Source: a virus
Taxonomy: Duplodnaviria > Caudoviricetes
Reading direction: 5' to 3' (one strand)
IMG/VR virus record: IMGVR_UViG_3300037601_000119
Location: 1-41,197 of that record
DNA length: 41,197 nt
Below, one piece after another: positions 20,001-27,082 of this stretch (position 1 is the first letter of the stretch; the number at the start of each line of letters is the position of its first letter). Under the pieces are notes generated by a model. The model was not told the origin of the DNA, did not search any database, and saw only the letters and a program-made list of their open reading frames with translations. The translations under genes and the position numbers were made by a program.

Positions 20001-20826
20001 GCTACCGGCGGCCGAAACCGCGACCCGTCCGGGTCTTCGCACCGAGCTCTTTCCCTCTGCGCTGAACCGCTGGAATCCCGAAGTCCGGTCGGCGGCTGAA
20101 GTCGACACCTCGATCTCGATCCTTGACGTCATCGGCGCCGACTTCTTCGGCGAGGGCGTGACCGCGAAGCGCATCGCGGCCGCGCTTCGCGCCATCGGCG
20201 AAGAAGACATCACCGTCAACATCAACTCGCCCGGCGGCGACTTCTTCGAAGGGCTGGCGATCTACAACCTTCTGCGTGAGCACAAGGCGAAGGTCACGGT
20301 GAAGATCCTCGGCATGGCGGCATCGGCTGCGTCCGTGATTGCCATGGCCGGAGACGAGATCCAGATCGCTCGCGGCGCCTTCATGATGATCCACAACACC
20401 TGGGTGTGCGGTTGCGGTGATCGGCACGGCCTGCGCGACATCGCCGACTGGCTCGAGCCGTTCGACAATGCGGCGATCGATATCTACGAGGCCCGGACCG
20501 GCATGAAGCGCGCCGAGCTCGGAAAGATGCTCGATCGCGAGACGTGGCTCGGTGGTTCCGAGGCCATCGACAAGGGTTTCGCGGACGCCCTTCTGCCGGC
20601 GGACGAGATCGCGTCCGAACCGAAGAATACCGCTAGCGGCGAGCCTCTCGCTGCGGCCCACAAGCTCGACACACTTCTCGCACGGCTCAACATCCCGCGC
20701 TCTGAACGGCGTGACCTGATCCGTGCGCTGAAAGGCGACACGCCCGGCGCTGTCGCATCCGGCATGCCCGGCGCTGCCGTCATCGCGGAGGTGGAAGACC
20801 TCCTCCAATCAATCAAACGTATGTGA
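19987..20826 (+). CDS. ClpP-type head maturation protease
   Basis: INSPGGD, AASAASVI, MMIHN and ETWL...A...GFAD motifs; AAGGAG RBS. Confidence 0.95.
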   Translation: MSKRKLPAAETATRPGLRTELFPSALNRWNPEVRSAAEVDTSISILDVIGADFFGEGVTAKRIAAALRAIGEEDITVNINSPGGDFFEGLAIYNLLREHKAKVTVKILGMAASAASVIAMAGDEIQIARGAFMMIHNTWVCGCGDRHGLRDIADWLEPFDNAAIDIYEARTGMKRAELGKMLDRETWLGGSEAIDKGFADALLPADEIASEPKNTASGEPLAAAHKLDTLLARLNIPRSERRDLIRALKGDTPGAVASGMPGAAVIAEVEDLLQSIKRM

Positions 20827-20837
20827 TGGAGATTCCC

Positions 20838-22157
20838 ATGAGGAAGATCATGCCGCTTGTCTCGATGGCGGCACTGATGGCTGCTGCGCGCCCGGAGGGC
20901 GTGCTCGGCAGCGTTCGCAATGACGGCGTCGATCCCAAGAAGATCGAAGCGCTGCTTGCGGATGTGAAATCGGAGCTGACCCGCGTCGGCGACGATGTGA
21001 AGCGAACGGCCGAGGACGCGCTGAAGCAGTCCAAGGCCGCCGGCGACACCACGAATGAGCTGAAGCACAAGGCGGACGAGCTTCTGACCGTTCAGTCGAA
21101 GCTGACCGACGCCCAGTCGAAGCTCGAAACGAAGATGGAAGCCCTCGAGACCCGCAACAAGGATCTCGAGCAACTCTTCGCGTCGATGGGCCGCGGCAAC
21201 AAGGCCTCGGTCCAGTCGCTTGGCGAACAGGCCGTCGAAGCGGAAAGCTTCAAGGCCTTCGTTGCCAACGGCGCCCGCGGCACGCTGCGGATTCCGGTGA
21301 AGCAGGCGATCACCTCGCTCAACACCTCGGCCGGCGACCTGATCTGGTCCGACCGTGAGCGCGAGATCGTCGGCATGCCGCGCCGGCAGATGACGATCCG
21401 CCAGCTGCTCGACCAGGGCCGCACGGGTTCGAACCTGATCGAGTACGCCAAGCAGACGACCCGCACGAACAATGCGGACGTCGTCTCTGAAACCGTCCAG
21501 AAGCCGGAATCGACCTATGTCTGGGACCGAGCCGATGCAGCCGTGCGTACGATCGCGCACTGGGTGCATGTCTCCCGCCAGGCGATGGAAGACGCCGAAC
21601 AGCTCCAGAGCGAGATCGACGGCGAGCTGCGCTATGGCCTCGACCTCGTCGAGGAAACGCAGCTTCTGACGGGCGATGGCACCGGTCAGAACCTGTCGGG
21701 TCTGGTGACCGAGGCGACGGCCTATTCCGCCGCGTTCGACGTTACCGGGGCGACGATGATCGACACGCTGCGTCTTGCGCTCCTGCAGGCGTCGCTTGCC
21801 GAGTATCCGGCCGACGGCATCGTCCTTCACCCGACGGACTGGGCCCGCATCGAGCTGACGAAGGATGGCGAGTTCCGCTATATCTTCGCCAACGTGCTCC
21901 AGCTGGCCGGCCCGCAGCTGTGGGGCCGCCCGGTTGTGGCCACCCAGTCGATGACCGAGGATGACTTCCTCGTCGGCGCCTTCCGCGCCGCGGCGAAGAT
22001 CTACGACCGCATGGATGCGGAAGTGGTGATGTCCTCGGAAGACCGTGACAACTTCATCAAGAACATGATCACGGTCCGCGCCGAAAAGCGCCTCGCCCTC
22101 GCGGTGAAGCGTCCGGCCGCCCTCATCACGGGCGACTTCGGCAACGTCTCCGGCTAG
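20838..22157 (+). CDS. HK97-fold major capsid protein with N-terminal delta (scaffold) domain
   Basis: Coiled-coil N-terminus; KPES, TIAHW, QLLTGDGTGQNLSG, LWGRPVV and NMITVRAEKRLAL.V.RP motifs. Confidence 0.96.
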   Translation: MRKIMPLVSMAALMAAARPEGVLGSVRNDGVDPKKIEALLADVKSELTRVGDDVKRTAEDALKQSKAAGDTTNELKHKADELLTVQSKLTDAQSKLETKMEALETRNKDLEQLFASMGRGNKASVQSLGEQAVEAESFKAFVANGARGTLRIPVKQAITSLNTSAGDLIWSDREREIVGMPRRQMTIRQLLDQGRTGSNLIEYAKQTTRTNNADVVSETVQKPESTYVWDRADAAVRTIAHWVHVSRQAMEDAEQLQSEIDGELRYGLDLVEETQLLTGDGTGQNLSGLVTEATAYSAAFDVTGATMIDTLRLALLQASLAEYPADGIVLHPTDWARIELTKDGEFRYIFANVLQLAGPQLWGRPVVATQSMTEDDFLVGAFRAAAKIYDRMDAEVVMSSEDRDNFIKNMITVRAEKRLALAVKRPAALITGDFGNVSG

Positions 22158-22180
22158 TCCGGACACACCTGAAGACAGGG

Positions 22181-22208
22181 CGGGCGGCCTTCGGGCCGCC
22201 CGTTTCTT
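22181..22208 (+). terminator. Intrinsic terminator after the capsid gene
   Basis: CGGGCGGCC-TTCG-GGCCGCCCG followed by TTTCTT. Confidence 0.85.
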
Positions 22209-22219
22209 CGGAGCACGTC

Positions 22220-22504
22220 ATGAAAATCAAAGCCCTTCGCTCGCTCACCGGAGACTACGGCCAGCTGCGCCGCGGTGCCGTGACCGACATTCCCGATCAC
22301 CGGGCACAGCAGCTGATCAAGCGCGGCCTTGTCGTGCCCGTCCAGGGCGTGGCGCGGGAGGTCGCCGGCAAGCCGGAGAGCCCTACGGAAAGCCGCCCAG
22401 CTGGTGGCCAGACTGGGAAGGCGAAGCCCTCGTCCTCGTCGCCGCAGGCCCAAGCACGAAAGACCAGCCCCTCGAAATCGTCCAGGGCCAAGCCCGCGTC
22501 ATAG
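22220..22504 (+). CDS. Small post-capsid head-associated protein; probable N-terminal partner of a frameshift fusion
   Basis: Compact domain MKIKALR...GAVTDIPDHRAQQLIKRGLV followed by a low-complexity S/P/K tail; GGAG RBS. Confidence 0.8.
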   Translation: MKIKALRSLTGDYGQLRRGAVTDIPDHRAQQLIKRGLVVPVQGVAREVAGKPESPTESRPAGGQTGKAKPSSSSPQAQARKTSPSKSSRAKPAS

Positions 22505-23004
22505 CAATCAACACGTCCTGGAGGCTATGCCCCTGGGCGGATGCCCTTTACGCCTGCGATTTCGCCTGGTGGCAGCGCCATGGCGGGGTTCCCGAGTTTA
22601 CCGGCTTGAAACTGTCGGTCGATGCGGCCGCGGTCCGACGTCCATGGGGCGTGCAGCCGGTTGGTATCAACAAGCAGGACGACCGGCTCGAGACCGGCAA
22701 GATCGGCACGGTCGGCTGGGCGGGAAATTCCGGCTTTCACGCCCTCAATCTAGCCGTGCAGATGCGGCCGTCGAAGATCATTCTCGTGGGTTATGACATG
22801 CGGGTCGATCACGGCCTGCACTGGCATGGCGCACACCAAGGCCTGAACAACCCCAGCCAGCGCAATGTCGAGCGCTGGCGGCGGTGCATGGATGCCGCCG
22901 CGCCCGTGATCCGGACGATCGGCATTCCGGTTCTCAACTGCAGCCCGATTTCGGCCCTCACGGCCTATCCGAAGATGACGCTCGAAGAGGCGCTCGCATG
23001 CTGA
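22381..23004 (+). CDS. Sialyltransferase/Maf (DUF115/MptE)-like glycosyltransferase domain lacking its own start codon
   Basis: Hand translation upstream of the tracked ORF: PYGKPPSWWPDWEGEALVLVAAGPS...VIAINTSWRLCPWADALYACD..WW, continuing to NSGFHALNLA...IILVGYD...VLNCSPISAL. Confidence 0.78.
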   Translation, partial: PYGKPPSWWPDWEGEALVLVAAGPSTKDQPLEIVQGQARVIAINTSWRLCPWADALYACDFAWWQRHGGVPEFTGLKLSVDAAAVRRPWGVQPVGINKQDDRLETGKIGTVGWAGNSGFHALNLAVQMRPSKIILVGYDMRVDHGLHWHGAHQGLNNPSQRNVERWRRCMDAAAPVIRTIGIPVLNCSPISALTAYPKMTLEEALAC

Positions 23005-23567
23005 CCCGTCTGTCCAATCCGGAAGGCTATGCCGTCCCGCTCGCCGAGCTCAAGGCTGCGCTCCGCGTCGATCACGAAGACGACGACGCGCGCCTGCAGC
23101 GCGCCATCCGCAGCGAAACCCGGCGTTATGAGGACTTCACCGACCGGGTGATGCTGCCGACAAATTTCGAGTTTCGTATCCACCATTGGCGAACCATGAT
23201 CACGCTGCCGTGCGCGCCGATCCGGGCGGTGACGGCGGTCGCCTATCTCGACGAAGACGGCGCGGAGCAATCGCTCGGGGCCGGGGAATGGTATTTCCTC
23301 GCCACGGACACGGGCGGGGAAATCCGCTTCACCGACACCTTCACCTCTCCGGCCCTCTACGACCGGCCGCAGTCCATCATGATCCGTTTCGCTGCAGGGT
23401 ATGACGATCCGGACGCTTCCGGGTCCGGTGACGATCCCGACCTGGTCGCCCCCGAAATCGATCGCCGCAACATCTCGCTCATGGTTCTGAAGCTCTATGA
23501 CGGCGACGAGGCCATGGAGGATTCCGAGCTTCGCCGGATCGCCGGGAACCGGAGAATCTTCCGGTGA
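22998..23567 (+). CDS. Head-tail connector (HK97 gp6 / phiE125 gp8-like)
   Basis: VPLAELKAALRVDHEDDD, LP.API..VTAV.Y.D and IRFAAGY motifs. Confidence 0.9.
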   Translation: MLTRLSNPEGYAVPLAELKAALRVDHEDDDARLQRAIRSETRRYEDFTDRVMLPTNFEFRIHHWRTMITLPCAPIRAVTAVAYLDEDGAEQSLGAGEWYFLATDTGGEIRFTDTFTSPALYDRPQSIMIRFAAGYDDPDASGSGDDPDLVAPEIDRRNISLMVLKLYDGDEAMEDSELRRIAGNRRIFR

Positions 23568-24073
23568 GCCGGCCGGTGATCAGTCCGAGGGCCGTGGTGT
23601 CGGCAGACTGCGTGATCGGTGCGGGCACGACGATCTGGCAATTCGCCAGCGTGACTGGCGGAACCGTGCTCGGCCGGGACTGCGGCGTGTCCCCGTTCGC
23701 CATGCTGCACGGTCCGGTGTTCGGAGACCGCTGCCGCATCAGTGCGGGGGTGGCCATGGGCCCCGGTTTCAAGATCGGGAATGACGTCTTCATCGGTCCG
23801 AACGTCACCTTCGCGAACGATGCCTGGCCCCTGTCGGACAAGGCCGGCTATCGGCCCGAGGAATTCAACGGCGCGCAATGGGCCGTGATCGTGGAAGACG
23901 GCGCCTCGATCGGTGCGAACGCGGTGGTGCTGCCCGGTGTCCGCATCGGACGCAAGGCGATGGTCGCGGCGCGCAGCGTCGTGACGAATGACGTTCCGGC
24001 CGGGCATTGCTGGCGGGACGGGGTGTGCCGGAAGATTCTCGGGACACCGGATCGCATGCGGTTCGCGGTATGA
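23564..24073 (+). CDS. Hexapeptide-repeat (LbH) sugar acetyltransferase, WxcM/FdtC/WlbB-like
   Basis: IGAGTTIWQFA, VFIGPNVTFAND and GASIGANAVVLPGVRIG...VVTNDVP repeats. Confidence 0.9.
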   Translation: MSRPVISPRAVVSADCVIGAGTTIWQFASVTGGTVLGRDCGVSPFAMLHGPVFGDRCRISAGVAMGPGFKIGNDVFIGPNVTFANDAWPLSDKAGYRPEEFNGAQWAVIVEDGASIGANAVVLPGVRIGRKAMVAARSVVTNDVPAGHCWRDGVCRKILGTPDRMRFAV

Positions 24074-24684
24074 TCACCGTCGCGACCCTGCTCTGGGATG
24101 CCAACCGGCATTCCCGCGACTTCTCGTCGATGTACGACGAAAGCTGGGTGGACAAGCTCTACAGGGGCTTTTCGCGCAACCTGACGGAGCCGTTTCGCTT
24201 TGTCTGCTTCACCGACCGCGCCCGGTCCTTCAGCGAGCCGGTCGAGATCGAACGCCTTAAGGCTGCCGAGCCGACCTATGCGACCTGCATCGAGCCCTAC
24301 CGGCTCGACGAGCCGATGATCCTCGTTGGTCTCGACACGATCGTGACCGGCAATGTCGATCACCTCGCGGCTTATTGTGAGACGGGCGACCGCATCGCGC
24401 TGCCGCGCGATCCGTTCCGTCCGAAGATCGCCTGTAACGGCGTGGCCCTGGTGCCGGCGGGCTGGAAACGGATCGCCACTCGGCATCGCGGCGAAAACGA
24501 CATGGAGTGGGTGCGGCGCTTTCCGCACCATTTCATCGACGACCTCTGGCCGGGGCATGTCGTGAGCTTCAAGGGTCATGTGAAGCGCCACGGCCTGGGC
24601 GATGCCCGCATCGTTTATCTGCACGGCAAGGAAAAGCCCCACGAGCTCGGTCACGTCGACTGGGTCCACGAACACTGGACATAG
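24070..24684 (+). CDS. GT-A fold glycosyltransferase-like protein
   Basis: YDESWVDKLYRGFSRNL...FRFVCFTD, degenerate DxD (GLDTIVTGNVD) and IVYLHGKEKP motifs. Confidence 0.8.
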   Translation: MITVATLLWDANRHSRDFSSMYDESWVDKLYRGFSRNLTEPFRFVCFTDRARSFSEPVEIERLKAAEPTYATCIEPYRLDEPMILVGLDTIVTGNVDHLAAYCETGDRIALPRDPFRPKIACNGVALVPAGWKRIATRHRGENDMEWVRRFPHHFIDDLWPGHVVSFKGHVKRHGLGDARIVYLHGKEKPHELGHVDWVHEHWT

Positions 24685-26213: not shown

Positions 26214-26660
26214 ATGGCTATCGATCCGATCCCGACCGATACCGAGATCCTCGTGAAGTTCGGTGACGGTGCTTCGCCCGAGACGTTCGCGGTGAAGTGC
26301 AGCATCAATCTCGACCGTTCGATCTCGTTCTCGCAGCAATACGAGGAAGACGAACTTCCGGATTGTGACACGCCCACCAACCCGCATTCGATCCGCAGGC
26401 AAGTGCGTTCTATCGATCTGGTCATTACCGGCCAGGGCAAGGCCGATGCCACCGATCTCGACTTTCTCATCGACTGGTGGAAAGCCGGCGGCCAGAAGAA
26501 CGTCAAGGTTGAGATCGGCCCGTCGACGACTGGCCGCAGCATCACAGGCGCTTTCTACATTCAGCTCGAGCTCACTGGTCAGTCCAAGCGTGATGGTGAG
26601 TTCGGCATCACGCTTACTCCGGTCGACACGGGCGCGCTGGTCGTCGCGGATCTCGCGTGA
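26214..26660 (+). CDS. Major tail (tube) protein
   Basis: LVKFGDGASPETF...C and PDCDTP motifs of alphaproteobacterial tail tube proteins. Confidence 0.87.
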   Translation: MAIDPIPTDTEILVKFGDGASPETFAVKCSINLDRSISFSQQYEEDELPDCDTPTNPHSIRRQVRSIDLVITGQGKADATDLDFLIDWWKAGGQKNVKVEIGPSTTGRSITGAFYIQLELTGQSKRDGEFGITLTPVDTGALVVADLA

Positions 26661-27082
26661 GCCGGTCCGCGAAGATCACGCTCGATTTCGGAGACGGGAG
26701 TCACGACTTCCGTCTCCGTATCGGCGAGCTCATCGAGCTGCAGGAAAAGTGTGACGCCGGTCCCTTCTTCATCCTGTCGCGCATTCTCACGAAGCAGTGG
26801 CGCACGCAAGACGTGTCCGAGACCATCCGCCTCGGCCTTATCGGCGGCGGCCTGCGGCCTCCCGAGGCTCTGGCGCTGGTCACCCGCTACGTGTTCGACG
26901 TTCCGGACTGGCTGGAGAATGCGAAAGTCGCCGAGGCGATCTTGACCGCGGCCATACGCGGGGCGGAAGACGAACCGCCGAAGGATCGATCGGGAAAAGC
27001 GGCGGGGGAGGCGGAGACGGCGAGCCCGAACTCCCCCGAGGCAAATGGCGATGGGCCGGAGTCTTCGCCAGCGCAGCCGTAA
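26657..27082 (+). CDS. Tail assembly chaperone (gpG-like, GTA-type)
   Basis: FGDGSHDFRLRIGELIELQEKCDAGP...ETIRLGLIGGG; lies between the tube and tape measure genes. Confidence 0.88.
   Translation: MSRSAKITLDFGDGSHDFRLRIGELIELQEKCDAGPFFILSRILTKQWRTQDVSETIRLGLIGGGLRPPEALALVTRYVFDVPDWLENAKVAEAILTAAIRGAEDEPPKDRSGKAAGEAETASPNSPEANGDGPESSPAQP

Follow-up and report, generated by a model that had tools for sequence, protein, structure and literature searches.

The small gene that follows the major capsid gene in the phage genome analyzed here probably codes for two proteins (we put this reading at roughly 80%): a −1 ribosomal frameshift at a C_CCU site would extend the short product into a fusion of a predicted capsid-binding domain and a putative sugar-adding enzyme of the Maf fold. 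Considered alone and judged from the sequences, a programmed −1 ribosomal frameshift at this gene appears very probable. The evidence consists of an open enzyme frame devoid of a start codon for its first half, a conserved shift site at the junction of the two frames, and relatives in which the two parts are fused in frame.

Gene organization downstream of the major capsid gene

The window (the whole stretch of 41,197 nucleotides) is a 41-kb provirus record harboring an HK97-type head module, with terminase, portal, ClpP protease, and capsid genes; the features from the capsid gene to the second glycosyltransferase described below lie on the plus strand. The HK97-fold major capsid protein (20823–22157, Pfam PF05065) is followed by a post-capsid gene of 94 codons (22220–22504, PHROG 2616, taken as the 0 frame), whose product consists of a folded N-terminal domain and a Ser/Pro-rich tail overlapping the enzyme frame. 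The folded part (22220–22348) spans about 43 residues in the order beta-beta-beta-alpha-beta and resembles DUF7302/DUF7210; its fold is that of the C-terminal domain of lambda gpFI, of the N-terminal domain of L9, and of the GINS B domain. The −1 frame encodes a transferase-like domain of 207 residues with the Maf/sialyltransferase fold (22381–23004, PHROG 4603). Further downstream are a head-tail connector/adaptor (22998–23567), a hexapeptide-repeat acetyltransferase likely involved in glycan tailoring (23564–24073), whose best NCBIfam match is NeuD/PglB/VioB with a score below the cut-off of that model, and a second glycosyltransferase (24070–24684, PHROG 1962).

The initial annotation had proposed that a hidden −1 frameshift joins the post-capsid protein to the enzyme, and its reading of the letters proved accurate. 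The frame of the open reading frame 22606–23004 has been open since 22108, and its earliest ATG/GTG/TTG codon is the TTG at 22606, so that there is no start before residue 76 of the enzyme. The motifs PSWWPDW, VLVAAGPS, VIAIN, LYACD, NSGFHALNLA, and IILVGYD all lie in the single frame translated from 22381, and the match of this frame to PHROG 4603 begins at residue 20 (E 5e-55). Initiation at TTG 22606 would remove 75 N-terminal residues and, with them, the GPS, IAIN, and YACD motifs. Between 22108 and 22450 the only near-cognate triplets in the enzyme frame are ACG at 22144, AGG at 22177, and AAG at 22390. The enzyme frame is −1 relative to the 94-codon gene, AGC CCT ACG is confirmed at 22379–22387, and the computed product of a −1 shift is 261 residues long, as had been estimated.

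The low-complexity tail of the 0 frame, adduced in the initial annotation as a further sign of the frameshift, is indeed present; it has no value as separate evidence, because GTC GTC read one base on gives runs of Ser, and the tail is a by-product of the overlap. No indel was found across 21900–23200 in the contigs of both runs available (2/2), which may themselves be the source of this DNA. Since the frame offset also recurs in dozens of divergent loci, it is not an assembly error.

In the interval separating the small gene from the capsid gene, the window harbors a GC-rich hairpin with a UUCG loop (22182–22201), and similar ones occur in many relatives; possibly, it represents a partial terminator lowering downstream expression.

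Split, fused, and stand-alone relatives

A total of 266 loci, including the window, were gathered; two of the scans contributed the best 80 of 551 and the best 80 of 428 matches, respectively. Eight of the 266 lacked the anchor and were left out, and the remainder collapsed to 194 distinct junctions, which were sorted with a profile of the small domain. We called split those loci in which the small domain in the 0 frame overlaps the enzyme in the −1 frame. Among the matches listed, this layout was found in 72 of the 194 distinct loci (including the window and phages D3 and S20), two were in-frame fusions, and 120 fell into neither class. The count of split loci is a lower bound, because the profile missed eight loci that are likely split as well but whose small domains have diverged more (L081, L088, L092, L096, L171, L093, L256, and L082); these are counted among the 120 others.

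A normal start codon ahead of PxWWPDW in close homologs had been named in the initial annotation as the finding that would speak against a frameshift. In the split loci it is nearly always missing: 1/72 of them has an in-frame start no more than 30 codons away from the GPS motif, vs. 96/120 of the other loci, so that such starts are confined to other contexts; a start anywhere in the open enzyme frame is present in nine of the 72. A capsid gene lies directly upstream in all 67 of the loci that reach an upstream open reading frame (out of 74 split or fused), and the enzyme motifs are intact in 70–72 of the 72 split loci. The missing starts, the upstream capsid gene, and the intact motifs, taken together, imply that the split is neither an error nor a product of decay.

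The in-frame fused homologs that the initial annotation had suggested looking for do exist, and these natural fusions reproduce the predicted junction. Besides the two sorted by the profile (L016 and L169), seven of the 120 listed proteins were recognized by eye as fused. The fused L016 and the split L207 are sisters with 100% support in a quick tree; L016 differs by one extra A in an upstream A-run and has CTTT where L207 has CCCT, and its protein contains the 0-frame linker as well as the −1 sequence. An overall −1 frameshift reading is thus supported by the overlap, the missing start, the conserved site (see below), and the in-frame fused relatives. The hypothesis that the split represents a pseudogene or a sequencing error in a once-fused gene, to which the existence of L016 and L169 could lend some color, is hardly tenable, since the same −1 offset and site recur in 72 divergent loci, the enzyme motifs of which are intact, both runs are free of indels, and, within the L016/L207 pair, it is the copy without CCCT that is fused.

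Most of the enzyme homologs are stand-alone proteins with their own start, and the small domain is also found without the enzyme; hence, neither part needs the tethering. Small-domain loci with other cargo were also sought: the protein search gave 22 matches, which by their sequences appear to be the same short form, and tblastn gave two phages harboring the domain alone. A scan with L107 gave no match.

Some of the relatives belong to cultured phages. D3 (orf6.5/orf7, L022), S20 (L025), and Psp6 (L349) have the split layout annotated as two genes; in Psp6 a U_UUU_UUG candidate site was recognized by eye. The suspicion that gene callers would truncate the product is borne out by the D3 and S20 records, which give two genes and a shortened enzyme, so that the fusion product is missing from those annotations. 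The homologs L024, L348, L023, and L027 comprise P1 pmgO and P7 hdmB ("head morphogenesis"), which stand alone, and PAJU2 ORF010 and Eowyn gp5, both of which carry the annotation "structural protein".

The proposed shift site

The proposed site (C_CCU, 22381–22384) is read as AGC CCU in the 0 frame and as CCC UAC in the −1 frame. Its conservation, which the initial annotation had suggested testing, holds at the nucleotide level: C_CCT occurs in the shift phase in 60 of the 72 split loci and in the other two phases in 4/72 and 3/72, while the corresponding values in the group of other loci are 19, 10, and 17 of 118. A wider search window raises the shift-phase count to 61, and after the reduction of redundancy the motif is retained in 53/63 (below 85% identity) and 46/55 (below 70%) loci. 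In the 13 long open reading frames of the window, C_CCT occurs in only 4 of 5631 codons; therefore, its presence in the shift phase is more than chance would give. CCT is a rare codon, representing 49 of the 467 Pro codons of the enzyme bodies and 12 of the 5631 codons of the window's long open reading frames. Since the residue that follows in the −1 frame varies, the constraint acts on nucleotides.

Among the 61 sites, 16 are extended to X_XXC_CCU and 20 to C_CCU_UUN; the site of the window has neither extension and is a bare tetramer. The 11 split loci without C_CCT, inspected by eye, have C_CCA_AAG, C_CCA_AAA, G_GGA_AAA (two cases), A_AAA_AAC, or U_UUU (six cases). The −1 frame of S20 has four TGA codons immediately ahead of CCC, which sets a limit to how early the shift can occur; −1-frame stops directly before the site also pin it in L229 and L220/221/226. 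The same layout is shared by a D3-like clade, whose identity to the window is about 30%, with C_CCA_AAG in 67, C_CCT in 11, and C_CCC in two of the 80 loci retained of 128 (27, 10, and two, respectively, of 39 distinct ones).

According to Sharma et al. (PMC4066793), C_CC.U is one of six tetramers that are clearly shifty in E. coli, these six being so only with a strong stimulator (range 0.26–5.6%), and V_VV.A_AA.R ranks among the best heptamers. The need of a bare tetramer for a strong stimulator counts against the site of the window.

The codon preceding CCU is NRC in 59 of the 61 sites (51/53 non-redundant), against a background of about 52%; this suggests that the preference reflects a constraint on the P-site tRNA.

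Candidate stimulatory elements

Two elements flanking the site are candidate stimulators. On the 5′ side there is an internal Shine–Dalgarno-like GGAGG (22357–22361), 19 nt before the shift site. In 27 of 61 loci, the end of GG[AG]GG is at a distance of exactly 22 nt from the site, and it lies at 10–14 nt in four cases. The spacing of 9–14 nt given for internal Shine–Dalgarno stimulators of −1 shifts in PMC5009743, which is that of the dnaX type, does not apply to GGAGG here, the distance being 19 nt in the window and 22 nt in most of the relatives having the motif.

Where codon −9 specifies Glu or Gly (25 loci after the removal of redundancy), the choice of synonymous bases is biased toward the motif. 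G was found at the third position in 25/25 loci at codon −9 (13.9 expected) and in 24/25 at codon −10 (12.1 expected), and A in 17/25 at codon −4 (3.1 expected). Of the codons intended as controls, −6 was raised too (18/23 vs. 11.4), −11 was depleted, and −12 was neutral. The loci with the motif are not independent, because, of the 25 that have it 19 or 22 nt upstream, 15 sit in one clade of the quick tree.

A small hairpin is predicted between GGAGG and the site (22362–22379 in the window, −7.3 kcal/mol); it is 77.8% paired vs. 16–53% when slid along the sequence. Looping it out would bring the spacing of GGAGG to about 9–14 nt. On the 3′ side, a stem-loop is predicted 7 nt after the site (22392–22422, −18.9 kcal/mol, z −1.86), partly forced by the coding of PxWWPDW. 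The region 3′ of the site folds more stably in split than in stand-alone loci (−12.3 kcal/mol in 48 loci vs. −9.2 kcal/mol in 35, p 6e-4), but the split loci are also richer in GC (0.71 vs. 0.65). Covariation beyond that of shuffles was found neither for the 5′ hairpin (24 loci, 42/500 for pairing) nor for the 3′ stem (26 loci, 253/500), and RNAalifold found no consensus structure around the site.

A possible compensation between GGAGG and the heptamer was also considered: GGAGG at 19 or 22 nt is present in 25/36 loci without a full C_CCU_UUN and in 0/17 with it (Fisher p 7e-7). We do not claim such a compensation, because the quick tree gives only one independent pair on strong branches.

The enzyme domain

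The model of the enzyme (pLDDT 96.8) finds its best structural match in Maf (PDB 5mu5; Z 15.3, rmsd 3.1, 183 aligned residues), followed by the pyrophosphokinase MptE (Z 11.6), SteA (11.2), Cst-I (10.6), and GT29 proteins (8.3–9.6); Foldseek agrees weakly with a Maf/sialyltransferase fold. The fold recognized in the initial annotation was, hence, the correct one, Maf being closer than the GT42/GT29 sialyltransferases, whose likeness is lower (Cst-I 10.6 and GT29 8.3–9.6 vs. 15.3). The model has the modified GT-A Rossmann-like core of Maf and PF01973. Differently from Maf (PDB 5mu5, PF01973), which is 632 residues long, a single domain of 207 residues is present here, with an identity of 15%.

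At the sequence level, PF01973 was matched by 42/42 aligned members at E up to 0.05, and the window protein lies below the Pfam gathering cut-off of this family (19.1 vs. 34.6 bits). A profile of the 42 sequences run against PDB sialyltransferase sequences at E up to 10 gave no match, and none of the 42 members matched a Pfam family of the GT42/GT29 type, so that the likeness to these is one of fold only. D60 and D139 are invariant in the 42 sequences. In the Maf of M. magneticum, the catalytic acidic residues are those at positions 324 and 415, and Maf proteins attach nonulosonic acids to Ser/Thr of flagellin, according to 10.1101/2020.06.03.131540.

On the basis of the modeled fold and of the gene context, the enzyme may work like a protein glycosyltransferase; by sequence, it does not qualify as a member of the Maf, GT42, or GT29 families, and the same fold includes the pyrophosphokinase MptE as well as SteA. 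As for the context, the downstream open reading frames of the relatives (68 selected of 136) include members of the acetyltransferase and PHROG 1962 families, methyltransferases, and one sulfotransferase. The tailoring genes beside the connector (23564–24684 in the window, and in the relatives) appear interchangeable, and also include a GT-D protein and PHROG 6804.

The small domain and its predicted docking on the capsid

The model of the small domain (pLDDT 88) matches GINS B (Z 7.5), the N-terminal domain of L9 (6.4), and the C-terminal domain of lambda gpFI (2lsm; 5.8, rmsd 0.9, 41 aligned residues). Among 57 members, eight matched DUF7302, seven DUF7210, and none PF14000 (gpFI) at E up to 0.05.

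The complex predicted for the small domain and the mature capsid protein scored 0.66, and none of the three controls exceeded 0.00. Of the solved pairs, 116/157 attained the mark used for this score, as did 2/215 of the mismatched ones. The runs share at least 95% of contacts, and the pLDDT of the partner is 82. The predicted interface comprises capsid residues 279–300, 378–381, and 436–438 and domain residues 7–18 and 28–37. This model places the predicted contact of the small domain with the capsid protein in the region of the LTGDGTGQN loop. The association with the head, which the initial annotation had supposed for the post-capsid protein, gains from this complex (0.66 vs. 0.00) to the extent that a model can speak for it.

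The gene of lambda gpFI comes after the capsid gene. The C-terminal domain of gpFI is close to the small domain in fold (rmsd 0.9 over 41 residues), although this likeness is tied with or below that to L9 and GINS; moreover, the domain is N-terminal here, starting at residue 1, and has no gpFI-like partner domain. gpFI is described as bridging capsid and terminase in PMC13595911.

The fold and an E value of 0.051 also gave rise to the idea of an L9-mimic feedback, in which the phage domain would compete with ribosomal L9.

Proposed mechanism and alternative explanations

In principle, we can depict the following scenario. Most ribosomes would complete the 94-residue protein, and a minority would re-pair tRNA-Pro from CCU to CCC, yielding the fusion of 261 residues; GGAGG upstream and the 3′ stem-loop might raise the rate of the shift, this being a less supported step. 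At the junction we found a shift motif in the right phase and a conserved downstream coding frame without its own start. Both the short and the long form are predicted to bind the head through the common small domain. Given this predicted binding to the capsid, the short form would serve as a head factor similar to gpFI, and the enzyme would reach proheads in a fixed proportion as part of the long form. There, the fusion would glycosylate head or neck proteins, i.e., sugars would be added to proteins of the virion; the fold and the neighboring genes suggest that the enzyme may use a nucleotide donor to transfer an acidic sugar and that the adjacent transferases may extend or tailor the glycan.

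A more far-reaching version of this scenario would be that of a widespread device, in which a single gene yields a gpFI-like capsid-binding factor and, through a −1 shift on C_CCU, a capsid-docked protein glycosyltransferase coating the heads of proteobacterial phages in acidic glycan, with the weak shift site driven by a new type of 5′ stimulator, i.e., a Shine–Dalgarno sequence 19–22 nt upstream brought to 9–14 nt by the refolding of a hairpin behind the ribosome; we regard it as rather doubtful.

The alternative that retains most plausibility, though an unlikely one, accepts the frameshift and assigns it to dosage: it would keep at a low level an enzyme that acts freely on a non-capsid target (tail proteins, the host surface, or a small molecule), the small domain being incidental. 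This would agree with the abundance of stand-alone enzymes, which are found downstream of the connector, close to tail genes, or elsewhere than in the head module, and with the non-essentiality of P1 pmgO (PMC10695390). The close pair L145/L200, which has a leader of 14 codons, a junction about 90 nt ahead of the GPS motif, no head domain, and no capsid gene nearby, is also relevant: L145 keeps a C_CCT shift (a −1 shift at GAC CCT is required), and L200 is in frame by one extra base, representing a natural in-frame control. However, the split form follows the capsid gene in 67/67 testable loci, the whole domain is kept in the in-frame fusions, modeling predicts a binding of the domain to the capsid protein, and the homolog in PAJU2 bears a structural-protein annotation.

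Much less probable is that translation of the enzyme starts internally, at a non-canonical codon, GGAGG serving as the ribosome-binding site and the hairpin shortening the spacer; no fusion would then be made. The conserved GGAGG and the hairpin that follows could indeed form a structured initiation region, such as those known from T4 genes. Nevertheless, the −1 codons at the expected place are NNR CCC UNN, and in the window none of these is near-cognate to AUG. What is conserved is C_CCU, in place of which other clades have classical slippery heptamers; in-frame fusions also exist. We give a similarly low probability to a change of frame at the RNA level, where transcriptional slippage would add a C, or to another kind of ribosomal jump, either of which would produce the same fusion. 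The protein outcome would be nearly identical, but the site has a run of just three C, which is short for polymerase slippage, and G_GGA_AAA, C_CCA_AAG, C_CCU_UUN, and A_AAC_CCU are found in the phase expected for the re-pairing of tRNAs.

Comparison with known systems

The −1 ribosomal frameshift proposed here can be compared with that of the G/GT genes for the tail assembly chaperone of long-tailed phages, which is known (cited in PMC3711429). In both cases, one morphogenesis gene would give a short product and a longer −1 fusion sharing the N-terminal domain, whereas here the gene belongs to the head module, the extension has an enzyme fold, and the window has a C_CCU tetramer instead of a heptamer. 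Frameshift extensions of capsid and tail proteins are listed for T3, T7, A2, A118, A500, and PSA in PMC5009743; there too, an extra domain is placed on a fraction of a virion-associated protein, and several of the sites use proline codons. Those phages extend a major structural protein, often with an Ig-like domain, while here a small adaptor would be extended with a catalytic fold. As regards Z_ZZN tetramers of the IS3 type, the common natural ones are A_AA.G, U_UU.Y, and A_AA.A, and the part of PMC4066793 available to us contains no natural C_CCU case; their stimulators are spaced 9–14 nt from the site, vs. 19–22 nt for GGAGG here.

Virion glycosylation has been described in mycobacteriophages (Freeman 2023, as cited in PMC12619734), where phage transferases modify virion proteins; this is likely the end function here too, the differences being the proteobacterial hosts and the delivery through a frameshift fusion to a predicted capsid-binding domain. 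No published description of a frameshift joining a Maf-fold enzyme to a post-capsid gene was found in the literature searched, the scope of which stopped short of supplements, the GeneTack database, and subscription journals. The present analysis contributes the capsid-binding model, the D3 clade, and the conserved GGAGG 19–22 nt upstream.

If the proposed reading is correct, it would add to tailed-phage morphogenesis another recurring frameshift, located in the head module and adding an enzyme instead of a structural domain. This, in turn, would point to virion glycosylation outside mycobacteriophages, together with a route for its delivery. The natural C_CCU sites and the candidate long-spaced Shine–Dalgarno stimulator represent material for recoding studies, and the fusion is directly testable, since the cultured phage D3 carries the split layout.

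Lastly, the tail assembly chaperone gene of the window (26657–27082) harbors near its end, in the −1 phase, a G_GGA_AAA sequence (26992–26998), after which the −1 frame is open up to the tape measure gene; this is likely a frameshift of the G/GT type, the second one in this genome.
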